44,067 nucleotides of DNA from a virus (IMGVR_UViG_2909303794_000010:1-44067); one strand, 5' to 3'. Counted from the first letter of the stretch, positions 1 through 42,699 are shown. Notes: generated by a model from the letters alone, not told the origin. A program made the numbers and translations.

Positions 1-1068
1 TCAATAAGTTGGAGTCATTACCCAAGCAGTATTAAAACCATTTTCATGGAGTATTGTTGATAATGTATGCCTAAATCCATGTCCTGTAAGTTTTCCCGCA
101 TAGCCTATGCGTTTGATAAGTTGATTAACACTTGCCTCACTCATAGGTTTGTTTGGATCATTCCGTCCCGGGAAAACATAACGATAATTTCCTGTCATAG
201 ATTTAAGTTCATTAAGAAAGCCTAATACCTGGGTCGATAAGGGTACTAGGTGCGGCCTACGCATTTTCATTCTTTCGGCAGGAATTTCCCAAATAGCGTT
301 GTCCAGATCAAACTCTTGCCATAATGCCGCTCGCAACTCGATAGTTCTAACCCCAGTAACCATCAATAATTTTGTGGCAATCTGAACAAGTCGGCTTCCT
401 GCATAACTATCTAAAGCACGCAGAAAATCAGGTATCTCATCTGATTTTAAGAAAGGAAAATGATTTGATTTGTGTACTTCGAGGGCACTGGACAGATCTG
501 CCGCAGGATTAAACTCTGCTCTTCCGGTAGCAATAGCATATCGAAAAACCTCTGAGCAACGTTGCCGCACTTTGCGCATTTTCTCCAATGCACCACGTTT
601 CTCAATTTTACGCAGCACATTTAGCAATTCTAGCGGTTTAATTTCCCCTACAGGCCTCGTCCCTACATACGGAAAAATATCATTTTGGAACGCCTCAATA
701 ATATCTGAGGCATACCCAGCAGACCATTTTGCCGACTTCATCTGATGCCACTCTCTGGCAATCTTTTCGAATGCGTTCTCAGATTGAATTCGTAATGCTA
801 ATTTTTGTTCTTTTCGAACCTCACTAGGATTTTTTCCCTCGGCCACTATTTTTCTGGCCTCATCACGGCGGGCGCGAGCTTCAGCAAGTGTGATCGTTGG
901 ATAAACACCAAGCGAGATCATTTTAGGTTTACCTGCATAGCGATAACGAAATCGCCAGCTTTTACTTCCATTTGGCTCTACAAGTAAAGACAACCCTTGC
1001 CCATCCCCAAGTGTATAGGCTTTAGCTTCAGGTTTAGCACGGCGAATCTGCATATCATTTAGGGGCAT
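1..1068 (-). CDS. P4-type tyrosine integrase, apparently C-terminally truncated (355 aa, stop at 3..1)
   Basis: N-terminus MPLNDMQIRRAKPEAKAYTLGDGQGLSLLVEP... is typical of P4-family integrases; HGFRH box present, but the ORF stops (..AWVMTPTY*) before where the second His and catalytic Tyr are expected. It lies immediately outside the left att repeat. Confidence 0.65.
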   Translation of the reverse strand: MPLNDMQIRRAKPEAKAYTLGDGQGLSLLVEPNGSKSWRFRYRYAGKPKMISLGVYPTITLAEARARRDEARKIVAEGKNPSEVRKEQKLALRIQSENAFEKIAREWHQMKSAKWSAGYASDIIEAFQNDIFPYVGTRPVGEIKPLELLNVLRKIEKRGALEKMRKVRQRCSEVFRYAIATGRAEFNPAADLSSALEVHKSNHFPFLKSDEIPDFLRALDSYAGSRLVQIATKLLMVTGVRTIELRAALWQEFDLDNAIWEIPAERMKMRRPHLVPLSTQVLGFLNELKSMTGNYRYVFPGRNDPNKPMSEASVNQLIKRIGYAGKLTGHGFRHTLSTILHENGFNTAWVMTPTY

Positions 1069-1231
1069 GTGTATAGAATTCCAAAATCGAACAGGAACAT
1101 ATACATAATCCTATACACATTTAGTACTGGATTCTACTGGAAGGTTATGGACTAACACGGACAACGATAACAAAAAATCTTTTATAAAACAGTATGCTTA
1201 TGGACAAATACGGACGTTTGAAGAAGTTGGG

Positions 1232-1278
1232 ATGGTGCCGATAATAGGAGTCGAACCTACGACCTTCGCATTACGAAT
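1232..1278. repeat. left att direct repeat: 47-bp copy of the tRNA-Thr 3' end
   Basis: Exact 47-bp identity with 42623-42669 (atggtgccgataataggagtcgaacctacgaccttcgcattacgaat); sequence diverges on both sides. Confidence 0.8.
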
Positions 1279-1854
1279 TATAAGAATCCGCTTCTAATTC
1301 AAAGCATTACCCCATCAACACTGCGCTCACACGTCCCACCACATCAAAACATGTAAAGCCTTGCAATCCATTGCGAGGCCTTATATGTCTCAGTTTTGTC
1401 CCACCTTGTATTACGACTTGCATAGCTAATGAAGATAAATGTGACGACAAACGGCGAAGCAGTCTTCTTTTCTTTCGCTGCTTCCCCACACCCAGCATGC
1501 ATACCTTTCCGTCATAACTGAAGTGAATGTCAGTTATGAGCGAGAAGCAGACATTTACTTAACTGGATAGCAAGAGACTTCATACTACAGCTCATACATC
1601 ATGGTTGAGCCAAGAGTTTTCAGTAATGGAAAGACATTGCCCACATGATCGTACCGTAACCACATTAGAAGCAGGTGCACTTTGCGAATTCTGATTGTTT
1701 CAACCTATCGGTTTTGAATTTTTTATAAAAAATATTCGCAAATTTGTGAATTATGAGAGACAAACGAGCATGGACAACCTATGTTACTTTCATACACAAT
1801 GAAGCAACATGATAAAAATACACTGACTTTAGTAAGTAAATTTAGGAGATTGCG

Positions 1855-3189
1855 ATGTTTAGCTTAATCATGGCCGGAGAACCGGACGTTTTTGACCGCT
1901 GGCCGTGTATGGATCCTAAGCTTAAAGAAGGCAAGGATAGCTTCTCGATGTCCCGCATGCTAGAAGGCACCCCAAGCGATATTTACAGTAAATTAACACC
2001 AATAAGACCTGATACCTTAAGAGAACTCGCCAAGCTACCGGTGTTGTTCATGACCGAAACTTATACAAAAGATGATGAATATGATACAAACAAGTACATC
2101 AGGATCAGGCTTGGGGAAATAAAAAATTTACATAAAGATGGTGGCGATATTTTATTTTCTTTCAAGATTAATCATGATTTTGGAGAAATAACAAACCCCC
2201 AAACGGCATTATATAAAGAAACCCTGGGACTAGGAGCTTTCGGGTTAAGTCGTACACATTGGGCAGTAAAAGATAAGGATTTGAATATTGTTCTGGAATG
2301 GCTTGGTTTAAACAAGAAAAATAACCATTCGAAAGGTACAATCAAATTAAAAAAACAAACATACCCAGTAGCCGAGAATATCATAGATTATCTTAATTTT
2401 ATTAAGAAATACCATCATGATGGTCTCATTACCTTTTATCGTGGACACTCTAAAAGCTCATATGAGCTTGTCCCCTCTCTTTACAGAAAAAATCAAAACG
2501 GGACGTACAGGCATCTTGCTTCAGAATCTGATTTAGTACGTGAAATACTCAGCGCAAGACCAAATGAATTTAAGGAGGATAAATTTACGATTGATAAACT
2601 TGTCCGCATGCAGCATTATGGCTTGCCTACGAGACTCCTAGATATTACATCTAACCCACTGATAGCATTATATTTTGCTTGCTGTTCGAACCCCGATGAA
2701 AACGGACAGGTGATTTCGTTTTCAACAAACAGAAAGAAAATTAAATATTTCGACTCAGATACAGTTAGCTGTATAGCAAACTTATCACTTTTATCTTACG
2801 ATGAGCTGGAAAAATTGTCATCCATTGATGCCAGAAAAGGTACTACAGAGGTATCTGAAATCACTGATAAACTTGCGGACCTTATACAGAATGAAAAATC
2901 ATATTTCAGAAGCAGAATAATTCCTGATGACTTAAAGAAAGTTGTTTTCCTTAAGGCTAAAATAAATAATGAACGCATACAGTCTCAGGCTGGCGCCTTT
3001 CTTCTGTTCGGACTTGATCCAATTTTGCCGGAAACAGATGCTGAGTTTCCTCTTAACAGACTCGAGATAACAAACAAAAATAAAATTCTGGAAGAGCTGG
3101 CGCAGCTTAATATATCCGAAAGCACTGTATACCCCAGCATGGAGAAAACGGCAGCGGAAATTACAAAAAAGTTTTTATCGGTATCATAA
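1855..3189 (+). CDS. FRG-domain protein (444 aa) with an unassigned N-terminal region of ~190 aa
   Basis: Motifs FYRGHS ... VRMQHYGLPTRLLDITSNPLIALYFAC match the FRG-domain signature as I recall it. RBS AGGAGA 6 nt upstream of the ATG. AT-rich. Confidence 0.6.
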   Translation: MFSLIMAGEPDVFDRWPCMDPKLKEGKDSFSMSRMLEGTPSDIYSKLTPIRPDTLRELAKLPVLFMTETYTKDDEYDTNKYIRIRLGEIKNLHKDGGDILFSFKINHDFGEITNPQTALYKETLGLGAFGLSRTHWAVKDKDLNIVLEWLGLNKKNNHSKGTIKLKKQTYPVAENIIDYLNFIKKYHHDGLITFYRGHSKSSYELVPSLYRKNQNGTYRHLASESDLVREILSARPNEFKEDKFTIDKLVRMQHYGLPTRLLDITSNPLIALYFACCSNPDENGQVISFSTNRKKIKYFDSDTVSCIANLSLLSYDELEKLSSIDARKGTTEVSEITDKLADLIQNEKSYFRSRIIPDDLKKVVFLKAKINNERIQSQAGAFLLFGLDPILPETDAEFPLNRLEITNKNKILEELAQLNISESTVYPSMEKTAAEITKKFLSVS

Positions 3190-3390
3190 AGGGATAAACT
3201 AAAGGCAACGAAAACCAAGACTGCACAGTCTTCAAGGTGGAACTACTCATCAGGGGGCGGTTTCAGACTCAGGGTGAAAAATCGGAAGCTTCAGTGGCCT
3301 TGAACCACCCCCTATAAATTAACATATCTCAATGTTATCAATGTCTGCTTTTAGCACTGAAAGGACAAGCTAACAGAGTGCAGGTCCGGT

Positions 3391-4881
3391 GTGAGTGAAA
3401 GCAATATAAATCATTTACAAACCTCAGAGGATAGAGAATTGTTTACACTATTGTCATTTAACATTACACACAAAGAAAATGAAATATATGATTGTATATT
3501 TACAGATAATCAAAGGCATATACGAAATCTTCCGTTGAGTAGTATTGTTATTGGCGAAAATGGTTCTGGTAAAAGTTATTTGCTATCTCAGATCGCAGAT
3601 TTCTTTAGATTTATTCAAAGAATCATAAGCAAAGAAAAGAAACCATATTACAAATATGAATCTGCATCAGTTTCATATTTGATTGATTCAAACTTAATCG
3701 TTATAAAAAAGGACAGAAATAAGGTTTTGTGTTTTGTTAATGATGTTCCATCTAATATATTCAATGTAATATTACCAACTAAAGTAATAGCTATGTCCTT
3801 TATGGTTAATGATAAGTTTTCTTTTTCGAGGTTCGAGGAAGACGATTTTTATGATTATCGTGGAGTTAGAGCGACGTCTAATGCTTCTTATACTAGTACA
3901 ATTAAAAGAATGATAACCAACTCATTAATATTGTCGATAGGCTATAGAGATAAACTAAAGGCGGTAAAAGATACTTTGCATTTTTTGGGCATGAGTGAAA
4001 AATTAGCTATTACTTACAATCTCAACAGGAAAACTTTATTAAAAAAACAACCACCACTTAACACCATACTAAAAAAAATAGATGCAATTTTGCGACGAAA
4101 GCAGTACGTTAATGAGAATGATCTTTATAAAATTAAAGAAAATCCAGAAGTCATACTTCATGATATAGCTGTTTTGAGCGAAGAATGCAAGGAGAAAAAT
4201 AGTAGAATACATCTTACCCTTGACCTTAGTGATGAAGGGGGAGTTGTTAAAAAATCATTATTCCAGTCTTTATCACGCTTGGAAAAATTAGAGTTTATTT
4301 CTAACCCTGACGTTGAATTCTACAAAAAAGATAATTTTTCATTTGAAGAAACTAGTTCTGGTGAAAAGAATATTATTTTTACCATTCTTAATTTAATTGC
4401 AAGCATCAAAAATAACTCATTGCTTTTAATTGATGAGCCAGAATTGAGCTTGCACCCTACCTGGCAAATGAAATACATAAATTTCATAAAGAAATCAATA
4501 GCTTATAATTTTGACTGTCACCTTATATTTGCATCACATTCACATTTTATGGTGTCGGATTTAGAATCAGAATCCTCATCACTAATATCTATAAATCAAT
4601 GTAATGGGAAAAGAATATGTGAGCACATTGAATATAGCACATATGCTTGGTCCGTAGAAAATATACTGTACAAGGTTTTTCATTTACGTACCATTAGAAA
4701 TGCTCAAGTCGAAATGGATCTTTATGAATTATCAGGTCTCATATCTCAAAAAAGCTCAGATATTAAGAGAATGGAGGAAATCCTTACGCATTTGGAAAGG
4801 ATAGTGTTAGATGTAAACGATCCCTTAAATATGATAATAGAACAAGCTAGAATCTATATTGGTGGCTACCATGATAAATAA
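3391..4881 (+). CDS. P-loop ATPase of the AAA_15/AAA_21 (OLD/ABC-like) type, Septu PtuA-like
   Basis: Walker A GENGSGKS and Walker B-like LLLIDEPELSLHP; ~496 aa; start is GTG at 3391 with a weak RBS. Confidence 0.65.
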   Translation: MSESNINHLQTSEDRELFTLLSFNITHKENEIYDCIFTDNQRHIRNLPLSSIVIGENGSGKSYLLSQIADFFRFIQRIISKEKKPYYKYESASVSYLIDSNLIVIKKDRNKVLCFVNDVPSNIFNVILPTKVIAMSFMVNDKFSFSRFEEDDFYDYRGVRATSNASYTSTIKRMITNSLILSIGYRDKLKAVKDTLHFLGMSEKLAITYNLNRKTLLKKQPPLNTILKKIDAILRRKQYVNENDLYKIKENPEVILHDIAVLSEECKEKNSRIHLTLDLSDEGGVVKKSLFQSLSRLEKLEFISNPDVEFYKKDNFSFEETSSGEKNIIFTILNLIASIKNNSLLLIDEPELSLHPTWQMKYINFIKKSIAYNFDCHLIFASHSHFMVSDLESESSSLISINQCNGKRICEHIEYSTYAWSVENILYKVFHLRTIRNAQVEMDLYELSGLISQKSSDIKRMEEILTHLERIVLDVNDPLNMIIEQARIYIGGYHDK

Positions 4882-5488
4882 AATCACTAATGACATCTAT
4901 ATGCCACCATTCATAATGAATAAGATAAACTCGTTTAAACCTTTTGTGGGTGGTAGCTGGGATAGAAAAGATAAAGCGATTATTATTTTTAAACGGTTAT
5001 TGAGAAAGCAGCTATTAACAGCACAGAATAATTGTTGTGCATACTGTGGATTACCATTAGGTGAAACAGGAAAAACAGAAATTGAACATTTGGTTGCAAA
5101 AGGTGGACCTAAAAGGCCAAAGCATATAGAATTTACTTTTGAAGTTGAAAATCTTTATTTATCATGCAATTTATGTAATAGCCCTTTGAAAAAAGGCACT
5201 AAAGAAACCCTTATTTATAAAGATCCCATCTCATACTCTAACTGTACTTTTAGTATTGTACATCCTAGATATGACACACCTAATTTGCATTATTCATGGG
5301 TTGTAAGCGCTGTAGAGGTTCTCATACAAGGAATTACCGACAAAGGTCGAGAGAGTATTAAAATGTTTAAACTTGACTCCCCCCCTCATAATGAAGCACG
5401 TGCTAGAATAGAAATGTTAAGGAGATATAAAATGCTCATTAACTCTCCACAAATTGATCAGATAAATGCAGCCCTTCGATATAATTAA
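4871..5488 (+). CDS. HNH endonuclease, Septu PtuB-like
   Basis: CCAYCG...EIEHLVAK...NLYLSCNLCN HNH/zinc-ribbon motif. The ATG at 4871 overlaps the upstream stop (ATGATAAATAA), implying translational coupling; the ORF track's 4859 start is a TTG. Confidence 0.65.
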   Translation: MINKITNDIYMPPFIMNKINSFKPFVGGSWDRKDKAIIIFKRLLRKQLLTAQNNCCAYCGLPLGETGKTEIEHLVAKGGPKRPKHIEFTFEVENLYLSCNLCNSPLKKGTKETLIYKDPISYSNCTFSIVHPRYDTPNLHYSWVVSAVEVLIQGITDKGRESIKMFKLDSPPHNEARARIEMLRRYKMLINSPQIDQINAALRYN

Positions 5489-5491
5489 CAA

Positions 5492-5519
5492 ATGAAGCCA
5501 CTGCAATAGGTGGCTTCAT
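5492..5519 (+). terminator. candidate intrinsic terminator after the HNH gene
   Basis: 10-bp inverted repeat atgaagccac / gtggcttcat with an 8-nt loop, followed by a short T-containing tract. Confidence 0.45.
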
Positions 5520-5822
5520 TTAAATTCATCAGGTAAATATTGTTATCCTAAATAAATCTGGCAGCTATCAATGTTGAATACATTGATAGGCAGGTTCAGT
5601 TGATTGTGTTAATTATGTTTTTTCAGTCAAACGTCCTCTCTTGGTACATAGCAATCCAAGAGACAGTGGCGTAAAGTCATAGATGGCCGGTGGGAGGTGG
5701 TGGAAATCCTCTCATGCAAAAAATACATAAAATCGATAACGGCTGGAAATCATTCAATACTCGCACTATCGGAAATTCACCAGCCAACCGTGGCACGTTC
5801 TTGCATACGACGTGCTACGGTT

Positions 5823-6377
5823 TCATTTATCTCCGTTCGGAAACTTCTTATACAGTGTCGATATACCAACATCATAGATGATCGCCACCTTCTGGCGAGG
5901 AACGCCTGATGCAATTAATCGCCCGGCCTGCGCCCATTGTTCTGGTGTAAGTTTGGGACGACGTCCACCAATTCGTCCCTGTGCGCGAGCAGCTTCCAGT
6001 CCAGCTTTTGTTCGTTCAACAATCAGTTCACGCTCCATTTCAGCCAGGGCCCCCATCACATGAAAGAAAAAGCGCCCCATTGGGGTACTGGTATCAATTG
6101 AATCCGTCAGACTACGAAAGTTAATGCCTCGTTCGCGCAACCCCTCCACCAGCACGACAAGATGCCGCATACTGCGCCCCAGTCGGTCCAGTTTCCAGAC
6201 CACCAGCGTGTCACCTGCCGATAATGTCCTGAGCAGTTTTTTCAGTCCTGGTCTGTCGGACTTAGTGCCACTGATCTTATCTTCAAAAATCAGCTCACAT
6301 CCTGCACACTCCAGCGCATTACGCTGCAATTCCGTATTCTGGTCATTTGTTGATACGCGGACATAGCCAATAAGCAT
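5823..6377 (-). CDS. serine DNA invertase of the Gin/Pin/Hin family
   Basis: MLIGYVRVSTNDQ...LVVWKLDRLGRSM...GRFFFHVMGALAEMERELI matches Mu Gin closely from memory. Start taken at the MLIGYV Met with AGGGGA RBS; the ORF track start at 6422 is probably too long. Confidence 0.9.
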   Translation of the reverse strand: MLIGYVRVSTNDQNTELQRNALECAGCELIFEDKISGTKSDRPGLKKLLRTLSAGDTLVVWKLDRLGRSMRHLVVLVEGLRERGINFRSLTDSIDTSTPMGRFFFHVMGALAEMERELIVERTKAGLEAARAQGRIGGRRPKLTPEQWAQAGRLIASGVPRQKVAIIYDVGISTLYKKFPNGDK

Positions 6378-6434
6378 GAGCATTCCCCTGAGTAAAAACC
6401 GGGGATGATGCCAGTTAGCCATAATCTCTGCATT

Positions 6435-6460
6435 TTCTTAAACGTTGGTTTGGGAGAAGG
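6435..6460. repeat. gix-like inversion crossover site (left)
   Basis: ttcttaaacgttggtttgggagaagg is an inverted copy of 8303-8328 (13-bp perfect core ggtttgggagaag); it sits ~60 bp from the invertase start and inside the tail-fibre reading frames. Confidence 0.7.
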
Positions 6461-6896
6461 CTCTGCATTACCTGTTGGTGTCCCTGTTCCGTGGCCTTCA
6501 GCTACGCCGCCAACAGGCTGGCTGAAATGCAATGGCGCTGCCTTTGATAAGGTTAAATATCCCCGTCTTGCTACAGCATATCCATCAGGGAAACTACCTG
6601 ATCTCCGCGGTGAGTTTATTCGTGGCTGGGATGATGGGCGCGGCATTGATACAGGGCGTGCTTTATTGAGTATTCAGAGTGATGAAGTCAGAAAGCTCGC
6701 ATTAAAATACTGGGGACCAGCTTCAAACAGTTCACCATCAAAAACATTTGCACTCAGCGACAGTGCCGGTGGCGGGTTGTACACGGATGGAATAAGTCAG
6801 GCAAGCGGTGGGATTATCAACGCTTTTCAGCTCCCTGGCGGTAACGAAACCCGCCCACGAAATGTTGCATTTAACTATATCGTGAGGGCTGCATAA
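6435..6896 (+). CDS. alternative tail-fibre C-terminal segment (silent orientation; needs inversion to fuse to the constant N-terminal part)
   Basis: Tail-collar-like motif LPVGVPVPWPSATPPTGWLKCNGAAF...LPDLRGEFIRGWD; shares the N(V/L)GLGE junction with the expressed fibre at the crossover site. Confidence 0.6.
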   Translation, partial: FLNVGLGEGSALPVGVPVPWPSATPPTGWLKCNGAAFDKVKYPRLATAYPSGKLPDLRGEFIRGWDDGRGIDTGRALLSIQSDEVRKLALKYWGPASNSSPSKTFALSDSAGGGLYTDGISQASGGIINAFQLPGGNETRPRNVAFNYIVRAA

Positions 6897-7498
6897 TGGA
6901 TAATGCTGTATTAAATAGCGAGTTTATTGCCACGAAGGCGGGGAATATTACCGTCTATAACTATGATAGTGAAACACGGGAATATATTTCCACATCAACT
7001 GAATATCTTGCTGTGGGGGTCGGTATTCCAGCATGTTCCTGTCTTGATGCACCTGGCATACATAAGGTTGGTTATGCAATCTGTCGTTCTGTGAATTTAA
7101 ATTCATGGGAATATGTGCCAGACCATCGCGGTGAAATCGTCTATAGCACAGAAACAGGAGAATCAAAAGAAATCACAGCTCCGGGTGATTACCCTGAAAA
7201 TACAACCACTATCGCCCCTTTATCTCCATACGATAAATGGGATGGTGAGAAATGGGTGACCGATACTGAGGCACAGCATAGCGCCGCAGTCGAAGCGGCA
7301 GAAGCACAGCGCCAGTCGCTGATTGATGCTGCTATGGCTTCCATCAGTCTGATTCAACTGAAATTGCAGGCCGGACGGAAACTGACGCAGGCAGAAACAA
7401 CCCGACTTAACGCCGTGCTGGATTACACTGACGCGGTGACGGCAACAGATACCAGCACCGCGCCGGATGTCATCTGGCCTGAACTGCCGGAGGCGTAG
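6896..7498 (+). CDS. tail fibre assembly chaperone (alternative copy)
   Basis: C-terminal ...TSTAPDVIWPELPEA typical of Tfa proteins; follows the alternative fibre segment. Confidence 0.7.
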   Translation: MDNAVLNSEFIATKAGNITVYNYDSETREYISTSTEYLAVGVGIPACSCLDAPGIHKVGYAICRSVNLNSWEYVPDHRGEIVYSTETGESKEITAPGDYPENTTTIAPLSPYDKWDGEKWVTDTEAQHSAAVEAAEAQRQSLIDAAMASISLIQLKLQAGRKLTQAETTRLNAVLDYTDAVTATDTSTAPDVIWPELPEA

Positions 7499-7913
7499 GC
7501 CATTCAATATCGGGGGCTGTTGAAGTATCAACACGCATCAGCAGCACACGGTATTTCTTCCATTGGGTGAGAGTTGAAGTTTCTTCATCAGTTGCAATGC
7601 CCGCATCAACAGCATCCTGACGCCAGGATATTTCACTGTCAGCTTTTGCACGAAATGTGGCTTTCATGTTTTCTGCATCTGATATTTTCTGTTCTGGTGA
7701 AAGCGGCGGCTCATCAACCCATGCAAGGGCCCCTGAAACCATTCCCAGCATTTTTCCTGTTGGCTTATTTCCCCCATTAAATCTGACAGCATCCTCATCG
7801 CTGATTTCAATACCATCCTGCGGCCATGTCCCCTCCTTGATATAACTTTCGTATAGCGCTGCGTTGTAGATTGCATTTTCGGAAGGGCTGTAAACACTTT
7901 TAACTTTATTCAT
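7470..7913 (-). CDS. tail fibre assembly chaperone
   Basis: C-terminal ...TSTAPDIEWPTPP; convergent with and overlapping the alternative copy, as in Mu/P1 invertible segments. Confidence 0.7.
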   Translation of the reverse strand: MNKVKSVYSPSENAIYNAALYESYIKEGTWPQDGIEISDEDAVRFNGGNKPTGKMLGMVSGALAWVDEPPLSPEQKISDAENMKATFRAKADSEISWRQDAVDAGIATDEETSTLTQWKKYRVLLMRVDTSTAPDIEWPTPPAVQAR

Positions 7914-7917
7914 TCTG

Positions 7918-8598
7918 TTATCTCCCTTTCGCTATATAGCAAAGATTAAACCCACCGCTACCTGACATACGGGCTGTAAAACCCGTTCTTGAAGTACCAG
8001 TTGAGTTAACTCCATAAGCAGGCATGGTTGTTGGAGAAAGCAGAGACTCCTGGATATCTGCCATTGTCAGTGTAATTGATTCGACCCGCGCGGGGAAAGG
8101 TAGCGGGAAAACAACATTCGTCCCTGTCTGTCCAACGGGGAAACCGAAAATACCCCATTGTGTAATTACCCCATCCGGCCCCTTACTCCATCCAGATTTA
8201 GGATTCGGCCAGTCTGCTGCTCCAGAGTGCCCCGTTGTAAAACTACTCATATCTGGTACTTGCCCGGTATCCGTTCCGACGTTCCTCGTTGCCGCTTCTC
8301 CCAAACCAAGGTTTTCGAGAGCCGTTTTCACCGTGCCGTCCGATTTGATATCGCCAAACGGATTCTTGCGGCTTAACAGCAGCGCACGAAGCGCGGTAAG
8401 CAGCTGGTCATGCCGCCCCTTCTCCAGGCTGGCACCGGACGCCTCCACCACGCTACAAAGTTCTTCCTGCAACATATCAAAATAGTCATCATCCAGATCG
8501 GTGGCAGGTGTGCCGGTCTGGGGGTTACCACGGGTAAAACCGTTCTTACCCGCGCCGAACTTATCCTTCTGCGCGGTTTTCGTGTCTATGCGATGCAT
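7918..8598 (-). CDS. tail fibre protein (constant N-terminal part plus currently joined variable C-terminal part)
   Basis: Position after the baseplate genes; the crossover site lies in frame at residues ~94-101 (LENLGLGE). Confidence 0.7.
8303..8328. repeat. gix-like inversion crossover site (right)
   Basis: Inverted copy of 6435-6460. Confidence 0.7.
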
Positions 8599-41219: not shown

Positions 41220-41569
41220 TGGAGCCATACAGCCTCACACTCGATGAGGCCTGTCATTTTCTCAAGATATCCAGACCGACTGCCATTAACTGGATACGCA
41301 CAGGGCGTCTTCAGGCAACACGCAAAGATCCCACTAAGAATAAATCTCCTTACCTCACAACACGACAAGCCTGCATTGCGGCTCTTCAGTCTCCGCTGCA
41401 TACTGTCCAGGTGAGCGCGGGTGATGGCATAACAGAGGAAAGAAAATGTCACTCTTCCGCAGAGGTGAAATATGGTACGCCAGTTTCACATTGCCGAACG
41501 GTAAAAGATTTAAACAGTCTCTTGGAACAAAGGACAAAAGGCAGGCGACAGAACTCCATGACAAGCTAA
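41219..41569 (+). CDS. excisionase-like HTH protein (end uncertain; overlaps the integrase start)
   Basis: [30 protein letters not shown] is an AlpA/Xis-type HTH; RBS AGGTGA before the ATG at 41219. Confidence 0.55.
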
Positions 41570-42609
41570 AGGCTGAAGCATGGCGGGTCAGCAAACTTGG
41601 TGAAATACCTGATATAACGTTCGAGGAAGCGTGTGTCAGGTGGCTTGAAGAGAAAGCACATAAAAAATCACTGGACGATGACAAAAGCCGGATCGGATTC
41701 TGGCTTCAACATTTCGCAGGAATGCAACTAAGAGACATTACTGAATCAAAAATTTATTCAGCAATGCAGAAAATGACGAACCGGCGTCATGAGGAAAACT
41801 GGAAACTCAGGGCAGAAGCATGCAGAAAAAAAGGGAAACCTGTTCCAGAATACACGCCAAAACCAGCGTCCGTTGCAACGAAGGCTACGCATCTTTCATT
41901 TATAAAGGCCCTACTAAGAGCCGCAGAGCGTGAATGGAAAATGCTGGATAAGGCACCAATTATTAAAGTGCCTCAACCAAAGAATAAACGGATCCGCTGG
42001 CTGGAGCCCCATGAAGCACAAAGGCTGATTGATGAATGTCCGGAGCCATTAAAGTCTGTTGTTGAATTTGCACTGGCAACAGGTTTAAGACGCTCGAACA
42101 TCATCAACCTTGAATGGCAACAAATAGATATGCAGCGCCGGGTGGCATGGATAAACCCGGAAGAGAGTAAATCAAACCGCGCAATTGGCGTTGCGCTGAA
42201 TGATACTGCATGTCGCGTATTGAAAAAACAAATCGGGAATCATCACCGTTGGGTATTTGTGTACAAGGAAAGCTGTACCAAACCAGACGGAACGAAAGCG
42301 CCAACAGTAAGGAAGATGCGGTATGACGCAAACACAGCCTGGAAAGCGGCGCTGAGACGGGCTGGTATTGATGATTTCAGATTTCACGACTTGAGACACA
42401 CCTGGGCAAGTTGGCTGGTTCAAGCCGGAGTCCCGTTGTCAGTGTTACAGGAAATGGGAGGCTGGGAGTCTATCGAAATGGTTCGTCGATATGCTCACCT
42501 TGCACCTAATCACCTTACCGAACACGCACGGCAAATAGACTCGATCCTGAACCCATCGGTCCCAAATTTGTCCCAGTCAAAAAATAAGGAAGGTACTAAT
42601 GATGTGTAA
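41446..42609 (+). CDS. tyrosine integrase (prophage integrase)
   Basis: 387 aa with [10 protein letters not shown]...Y-type C-terminal catalytic region; adjacent to the tRNA attachment site. Confidence 0.9.
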
Positions 42610-42622
42610 CTTATTGATTTAA

Positions 42623-42669
42623 ATGGTGCCGATAATAGGAGTCGAACCTACGACCTTCGCATTACGAAT
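42623..42669. repeat. right att direct repeat (within the tRNA 3' end)
   Basis: Identical to 1232-1278. Confidence 0.8.
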
Positions 42670-42699
42670 GCGCTGCTCTACCAACTGAGCTATATCGGC
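42624..42699 (-). tRNA. thrW: tRNA-Thr (anticodon CGU)
   Basis: Reverse complement reads GCCGATATAGCTCAGTTGGTAGAGCAGCGCATTCGTAATGCGAAGGTCGTAGGTTCGACTCCTATTATCGGCACCA: cloverleaf-compatible, anticodon loop TT-CGT-AA, T-loop GGTTCGACTCC, encoded CCA. Confidence 0.9.

Follow-up and report, generated by a model that had tools for sequence, protein, structure and literature searches.

The 44,067-nucleotide (nt) viral sequence IMGVR_UViG_2909303794_000010, called the window over its whole length, carries three co-oriented, AT-rich genes on the + strand between a 47-nt attachment (att) repeat of thrW and a pin invertase. A preliminary description of this DNA grouped the three as one accessory cluster, with an FRG-domain protein ahead of a Septu-like ATPase/HNH nuclease pair, and offered two alternatives for the first gene: an independent defence gene, or a third component of a variant Septu system. 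The question raised by the locus is whether one anti-phage system or two have been placed in this prophage, and which genes they stand in for. It is considered probable that window positions 1232-5560 represent the cargo (moron) slot of an SfII/SfV-type thrW prophage, in which two unrelated and independently acquired anti-phage cassettes, a single-gene PDC-S15 candidate and a type I Septu, are arranged head to tail in place of the gtr genes. Gene identities, module boundaries, independent distributions and slot equivalence are the direct observations behind this reading.

The second and third genes are assigned to full-length PtuA and PtuB of the type I, stand-alone Septu. The open reading frame (ORF) of gene 2 (3391-4881, GTG start, 496 amino acids (aa)) matches Pfam AAA_21 (8.3e-16) and AAA_15 (6.6e-12), both above cut-off, and the PADLOC PtuA1 model PDLC00265 at 9.6e-171 over model positions 2-477 of 479. 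In the 496-aa numbering, Walker A is seen at G55-S62 (GENGSGKS), the signature SSGEK at 322-326, Walker B (LLLIDE, within LLLIDEPE) at 344-349, and a histidine pair at H383/H385. Gene 3 (ptuB, 4871-5488, + strand, 205 aa) matches PADLOC PtuB1 PDLC00312 at 7.6e-33 and displays the HNH nuclease residues C55/C56-x2-C59, H73, N94 and C99-x2-C102-N103 (CxxC...H...N...CxxCN); it lies below the cut-offs for Pfam HNH (16.1 vs 21.4 bits) and TIGR02646 (37.5 vs 52.15). The ATG of ptuB at 4871 overlaps the end and stop of ptuA by 11 nt (ATGATAAATAA at 4871-4881), and the same start is given in RefSeq at an identical Escherichia coli locus. Just downstream, positions 5490-5521 on the + strand form a hairpin whose stem spans 13 bp and which leads into a brief, broken run rich in T (AAATTCAT). 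Its folding energy is -19.3 kcal/mol (z = -5.3 relative to shuffled sequence); the hairpin belongs to the Septu module and probably terminates ptuAB transcription. PARIS, Gabija and AbiL were rejected as identities for genes 2 and 3, with AriA (about 1e-17), PDC-M01A and AbiLi scoring about 1e-15 to 1e-21 compared to 9.6e-171 for PtuA.

With an ABC-type AAA_15/AAA_21 ATPase gene overlapped at its end by an HNH nuclease gene, the two-gene operon has the arrangement of type I Septu (Doron 2018; EcSeptu 8EE4/8EE7; Septu Ec-B88). Like those systems, the window pair is borne by a mobile element, matches the PtuA1 and PtuB1 models over their full length and has no retron partner. Retron-Eco7 and Retron-Eco4, the type II Septu with PtuAB plus a reverse transcriptase (RT) and multicopy single-stranded DNA (msDNA), have homologous PtuA and PtuB folds and have acquired a third sensing partner; in contrast, the RT gene and the retron RNA are absent from the window. 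No RT ORF was found in positions 1-8000, no Rfam retron RNA at E <= 1 in positions 1-7000, and no RNA family in the intergenic gaps. Additionally, both proteins remain far below the retron-type NCBIfam equivalogs NF041760/NF041761 (PtuA 49.3 bits vs 500; PtuB 46.2 vs 150). The start of ptuA is more probably TTG 3439 (3439-4881, 480 aa) than GTG 3391, which is probably mis-set in RefSeq, because a Shine-Dalgarno sequence GAGGA lies at suitable spacing ahead of it (3427-3431), 480-aa homologues begin there with MFTL, and the alignment to the PADLOC model does not start before residue 18. The gap between the FRG gene and ptuA would then be about 249 nt rather than 201 nt.

Gene 1 (1855-3189, + strand) encodes a two-part protein of 444 aa. 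As the preliminary description had proposed, it is an FRG-domain protein: Pfam FRG (PF08867) matches aa 193-282 at 2.6e-22, with 80 bits against a cut-off of 25, and the FYRG motif is located at aa 194-197. This Pfam core lies within a longer effector region (2347-3186, aa 165-444), of which aa 165-440 match 14 PADLOC PDC-S15 models (best 1.6e-98), and phrog_4962, a family of unassigned function in PHROGs, matches the protein over its full length. By these profile matches, gene 1 is placed in the catalogued PADLOC single-gene defence candidate family PDC-S15. Since the gene is already listed there, the novelty proposed for it largely falls away. The invariant polar residues of the FRG region include R196, R211, E224, D242, H254, R260, D263, N267, S301, R374 and Q378. 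PDC-S15 models cover the FRG part only; gene 1 adds to it a conserved N-terminal domain of about 150 aa (1855-2304, about aa 1-150), for which there is no Pfam model. PDC-S15 is itself a predicted defence candidate, with no published validation found in the literature searched. The sequence features described earlier, namely the ORFs, the ptuA/ptuB overlap, the hairpin, the att repeat and the motifs FYRGHS, QHYGLPTRLLDITSNPLIALYFA, GENGSGKS and LLLIDEPELSLHP in the translations, were all found again, and the Septu assignment proved genuine.

The joining of these genes into one cluster was not borne out: the two halves differ in closest relatives, in GC content and in distribution, and they meet at a joint of roughly 29 bp. 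The FRG module (1529-3368, + strand) is a self-contained cassette composed of the gene with 326 bp upstream and 179 bp downstream, and is 94% identical over 1840 bp to an E. coli LF82 prophage and to phage Tritos, where the cassette is solitary in a lambdoid setting, with hokD as one neighbour and the replication genes as the other. The Septu module (3398-5560, + strand), consisting of ptuA, ptuB and the terminator, is 84% identical over 2174 bp to a P4-like satellite (L012/L013), where it is a bare two-gene cassette, and 70-74% identical to other mobile elements. The joint between them (3369-3397) is matched by neither donor and has a GC content of 0.59. The GC content of the FRG module is 0.379 and that of the Septu module 0.312 (0.38 and 0.31), compared to 0.51 for the rest of the prophage.

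The distributions of the two modules were followed in 5426 complete E. coli genomes, 40 of which carry the FRG cassette. Ten of these 40 contain the prophage of the window itself, at 99.8% identity or higher. The other 30 lack Septu and carry the cassette at 93-94.5% identity in lambdoid prophages, on the opposite strand and flanked by hokD and the replication genes. Septu DNA in E. coli is confined to the 10 genomes of the window's prophage lineage. Among viral contigs of IMG/VR, 56 encode FRG, of which 55 are without PtuAB and the remaining one is the same in sequence as the window; conversely, the viral contig L087 carries a complete PtuAB pair, 69% identical, without FRG. It can be seen that a conserved co-occurrence of FRG and PtuAB across unrelated genomes is absent, the pairing being limited to one lineage of 10 near-identical E. 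coli prophages and one identical IMG/VR contig.

More distant relatives display the same separation. Relatives of PtuA at 84, 72, 71 and 58% identity, whose loci were obtained by exact-protein look-ups, are each paired with PtuB as a bare two-gene cassette, and no FRG gene was detected by tblastn within 8 kb of them (8 loci). They are located in a P4-like satellite that also encodes a primase, Ash, AlpA and Ogr/Delta (the 84% relative), in an island where an integrase gene is accompanied by TraI_2_C and DnaB-like genes, within the transfer genes of a Salmonella integrative and conjugative element, and at the end of a Proteus terrae prophage between tail genes and an icd fragment (L011, 5880-10050; the 71% relative). 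The last case, at the end of a different prophage, indicates that unrelated phages carry this cargo in a similar prophage-end position. Scans of genome contigs with the PtuA alignment were set aside, as the back-translated patterns (Walker A and others) were too generic and the distant loci obtained, at least 5, were uninformative; scans of viral contigs were equally generic (at least 7 loci).

FRG relatives at 60, 50 and 44% identity occupy accessory-gene gaps of P2-like prophages, one such gap being flanked by the portal gene and the replication region and another lying beside the tail-fibre genes, as well as an island of Sinorhizobium that also has radical-SAM and CAP12-TIR genes. In phage P2_2H1, the relative lies at the right end beyond the replication gene, a position which we take to be the old/tin region of P2. 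The PDC-S15-type gene is thus found alone in lambdoid prophages, P2-like prophages and one island. PtuAB is never among the neighbours of these relatives (10 further loci), and the neighbours differ each time. In Klebsiella P2-like prophages (L021-L024, 5432-6829), the same gap contains a gene of 439-465 aa without a Pfam match, directly upstream of the FRG homologue and in the same orientation, which may have a defence role of its own or act as a partner.

The setting of the two modules is a prophage slot that holds different cargo in its relatives. The morphogenesis genes of the window are 97-98% identical to those of the SfII, SfI and SfV phages (98% to SfII), and the window is classed as an SfII/SfI/SfV-type prophage integrated at thrW. 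The att repeat at 1232-1278 (- strand) is an exact 47-nt copy of the 3' end of tRNA-Thr(CGU) thrW and marks the integrase-distal prophage end. Its second, exact copy lies at 42623-42669, with 0 matches in 100 shuffles, at the thrW gene (42624-42699, - strand), which is adjoined by the integrase at 41446-42609. The SfII-like attP arm (1232-1403) is 96% identical to SfII (L027, 9211-9382), and the terminator-like hairpin within it (1358-1379) has a terminator annotation in SfII. In SfII, the interval from the tail-fibre assembly gene to attP/int contains an acyltransferase gene, an insertion sequence (IS) element and gtrII-gtrB-gtrA, transcribed away from attP. The equivalent interval of the window holds FRG-ptuA-ptuB in the same orientation, followed by the pin-type DNA invertase (5823-6422, - strand), which bounds the slot. 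Compared to the O-antigen-modifying gtr cassettes of Shigella phages SfII, SfV and SfI, the backbone (98%), the thrW att site, the slot and the orientation away from att are therefore shared; however, the gtr and acyltransferase genes are absent from the window, where the cargo consists of the putative defence genes and the invertase. The earlier suggestion that this position corresponds to that of the serotype-conversion genes was correct, and the cargo-slot inference holds because gtrA-gtrB-gtrII and the acyltransferase gene of SfII occupy the same slot. In the related phage vB_EcoM-689R6, the equivalent region carries an invertase and a McrA-like enzyme.

How the two cassettes would act can be proposed by analogy, and both biochemical mechanisms, like the defence phenotype itself, are predictions. 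For distant PtuAB homologues, phage resistance that requires the ATPase and HNH motifs and an ATP-inhibited PtuA6:PtuB2 complex have been described (PMC13096335, PMC12640716), with cutting of DNA or tRNA-Tyr reported as the outcome of activation (PMC12640716, PMC12819146, PMC13096335). By analogy with these characterised pairs, PtuA ATPase oligomers of the window would hold the PtuB nuclease in an ATP-inhibited complex; infection would release or activate PtuB, which would cut DNA or tRNA-Tyr, leading to growth arrest and aborted phage replication. In the FRG protein, the N-terminal domain would detect an infection cue and switch on the FRG domain, a predicted enzyme of the ADP-ribosyltransferase (ART) superfamily, which would destroy NAD+ or ADP-ribosylate a target, so that the infection is aborted. 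The enzymatic part of this scheme follows Iyer et al. 2022 (PMC9503650), who place Frg as a clade within the ART superfamily and regard it as a probable NADase with an effector role in prokaryotic immunity. A predicted model of aa 165-444, built from a deeper alignment, reached a predicted local distance difference test (pLDDT) score of 87.7, and a Foldseek search of the PDB returned 39 weak matches, 10 of them with an ART fold: NatT (a RES-type NADase toxin), PltA/PltC (pertussis-like toxin subunits), Arr (rifampin ADP-ribosyltransferase) and the TASOR pseudo-PARP. This enrichment among weak fold matches is consistent with the published ART assignment, short of proof; the FRG family profile itself matched no PDB sequence. 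We also infer a resemblance to an R-S-E/Q arrangement, from the invariant R196 at a strand end, the ITS(266)NP motif and Q378 ahead of a strand.

Several points weigh against the reading of two independent defence cassettes. In E. coli, this Septu allele is accompanied by FRG in each of its 10 genomes, albeit within a single prophage lineage. No convincing intrinsic terminator follows the FRG gene, and the inverted repeat at 3190-3345 was rejected as a terminator or small RNA because its fold is no more stable than those of shuffled controls (z = -0.7). Other Septu loci share with the window just some 41 bp of sequence ahead of ptuA. Therefore, ptuAB may be expressed by read-through from the FRG promoter. 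The solved EcSeptu PtuA (8EE4) aligns with the window PtuA at E 2e-6 over about 135 residues of the C-terminal ATPase part, and the window PtuB has no match by phmmer among PDB sequences; from this, the pair is judged to be a divergent Septu clade, and the transfer of mechanism to it is thus an extrapolation. None of the Foldseek matches of the FRG model to ARTs in the PDB is individually significant (all E > 0.6). A published experimental test of any FRG-domain protein was not found in the literature searched.

These points lend themselves to other explanations, the most direct being a single variant Septu whose PtuAB would depend on the FRG protein as a third component, either a sensor or a second effector. 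The adjacency and common orientation of the genes, the lack of a clear terminator between FRG and ptuA and the 10 of 10 co-occurrence speak for it, as does the precedent of type II Septu, where the retron RT/msDNA is such an extra partner (PMC12640716). However, the 10 genomes represent one prophage lineage at 99.8% identity or higher. FRG occurs without PtuAB in three quarters of the FRG-bearing E. coli genomes (30/40) and nearly all such viral contigs, PtuAB relatives at 58-84% identity are never accompanied by FRG, and the halves differ in donor and GC with a sharp joint. PADLOC, too, treats the FRG family as a single-gene candidate. A three-component Septu is thus largely refuted already by the distribution data and appears very unlikely. 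Of the two roles first considered for gene 1, that of an independent defence gene is favoured and that of a third Septu component is unsupported, by donors, GC and distributions alike. Read-through, if it occurs, is a by-product of juxtaposition and no evidence of a three-part system.

It is also conceivable that the cassettes, independent in origin, cooperate in this prophage, either because read-through from the FRG promoter drives ptuAB or because NAD+ depletion by FRG lowers ATP and so relieves the inhibition of PtuAB. The missing strong terminator and the short conserved stretch upstream of ptuA would permit the former; for the latter, bound ATP is reported to keep the PtuAB nuclease inhibited (PMC12640716) and FRG is a predicted NADase (PMC9503650). 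Yet the scenario is purely inferential. Pairing in one lineage only provides no evolutionary signal of selection, and the occurrence of each cassette alone elsewhere indicates that neither depends on the other, which leaves cooperation improbable. To a similarly low degree, gene 1 might have no part in defence and just happen to occupy moron slots, its product being a prophage toxin, a host-modifying protein akin to ADP-ribosyltransferases or an anti-defence factor. In the literature searched no defence test of an FRG protein was found, and ART-fold enzymes are also toxins and phage host-takeover factors (general knowledge; PMC9503650). Against it stand the recurrence of FRG at accessory gaps in P2-like prophages and in an island that also bears TIR and radical-SAM genes, its PADLOC listing as a defence candidate, and an N-terminal domain shared with TIR, Abi_C, kinase, KAP and CD-NTase proteins, a repertoire typical of abortive-infection immunity. 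Two independently acquired anti-phage cassettes therefore remain the preferred reading of the locus.

The N-terminal domain of gene 1 is conserved in full-length homologues from Enterobacterales to Rhizobiales and Sphingomonas. Its invariant residues are R34, E37, T39, E68, R133, H135, W136 and K139, its conserved signature is S33-R34-x-x-E37-x-T39, E68 and R133-T-H-W-A-V-K139, and its predicted structure has pLDDT values of 82-94 across aa 21-150. Pfam searches at E <= 10 on 16 sequences of the domain yielded no family, and its structure had no significant match in PDB or BFVD. A profile of this domain only, searched against 1.84 billion proteins, retrieved 895 representative clusters at E <= 0.001, with proteins of varying length. 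From the best 150 matches, the 72 longer proteins (at least 250 aa; within P0241-P0388) were scanned against Pfam, and all 72 match an independently built hidden Markov model of the domain at E <= 1e-18. The domain is fused to a CAP12/Pycsar-type TIR in 21 of the 72 and to FRG in 19; Abi_C follows with 6, protein kinase (Pkinase) with 4, and TIR_2 and TIR with 3 each. Single cases involve a KAP NTPase, PNP, Schlafen/AlbA_2, AbiJ_NTD3, EAD2, FGE-sulfatase and CD-NTase. The fused PNP-type nucleoside phosphorylase matches a CBASS effector model. Matches of some of these proteins to PD-T4-6 were rejected as a tie to a validated system, as the kinase domain alone is responsible for them.

The distribution of partners suggests that the N-terminal domain could be a sensor or regulatory module ahead of interchangeable toxic effectors, in single-chain abortive-infection proteins. 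In such an arrangement, FRG takes the effector position. The fusions with TIR match the PADLOC candidate PDC-S35, so that the domain links PDC-S15 and PDC-S35. Their layout is that of PycTIR/Cap12-type TIR effectors, with the domain directly upstream of TIR, that is, a sensor followed by an NAD-directed effector; gene 1 differs from these in having FRG instead of TIR, and the window has no cyclase. One metagenomic protein, P0303 (ENA contig, 760 aa), combines a CD-NTase (aa 1-307), the N-terminal domain (313-444) and FRG (481-747), and hints that proteins of this kind can act as CBASS-type effectors; it is read cautiously because it is a singleton cluster, in which a gene-calling artefact is possible. 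A tblastn search of the window that used the cyclase portion of P0303 as query detected no cyclase gene, and no CD-NTase or pyrimidine cyclase was present beside FRG in the contexts examined. As the domain replaces the sensor part of CBASS/Pycsar-type effectors and is joined once to a CD-NTase, the signal may be nucleotide-derived rather than a phage protein. It is put forward here, tentatively and as somewhat less probable than its opposite, that this is an undescribed and widespread immune sensor or regulatory domain, plugged in before FRG, TIR, Abi_C, kinase, KAP, PNP and Schlafen effectors, which would unite PDC-S15 and PDC-S35 in one sensor-defined family and may bind a nucleotide-derived signal.

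Other features border the slot. Just beyond the att copy, at 1-1068 on the - strand, lies a P4-type integrase (Arm-DNA-bind_3, Phage_int_M, Phage_integrase) truncated by the window edge; therefore, a second integrative element stands in tandem at thrW behind the SfII-like prophage. On the other side, the pin-type invertase adjoins a 1.8-kb segment flanked by 20-nt inverted repeats at 6440-6459 and 8295-8314 (region 5823-8314). This segment carries alternative tail-fibre and tail-fibre-assembly genes, is missing from SfII, and by its gene content would act as a host-range switch. Positions 5718-5834 are 84-94% identical to the side tail fibre/attP-proximal region of the lambdoid phages HK97, HK106, HK75, phiP27 and Stx phages; they are annotated in RefSeq as a "capsid protein" pseudogene fragment and are overlapped by a sub-threshold Rfam CssrB match (31.8 bits vs 76).

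Defence cargo in phage accessory slots is already well documented, as in the P2/P4 hotspots and the lambdoid morons. The Septu pair of the window is a new member of a known system, and the FRG gene belongs to a catalogued, unvalidated candidate family; the mobile N-terminal domain, which lay outside the original claim, is the newest element to emerge. The locus represents a further case of a temperate phage exchanging lysogenic-conversion cargo for anti-phage genes. It also offers, within some 4 kb of an inducible SfII-like prophage, a compact natural locus in which an FRG/PDC-S15 candidate and a divergent Septu can be assayed separately or together. For the FRG family, domain swapping with TIR, Abi_C and kinase effectors supplies the basis of a concrete hypothesis, in which an N-terminal sensor would be followed by an ART-like, NAD+-directed effector. 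If the N-terminal domain is indeed a new sensor, it would aid the annotation of hundreds of protein clusters of unknown function.

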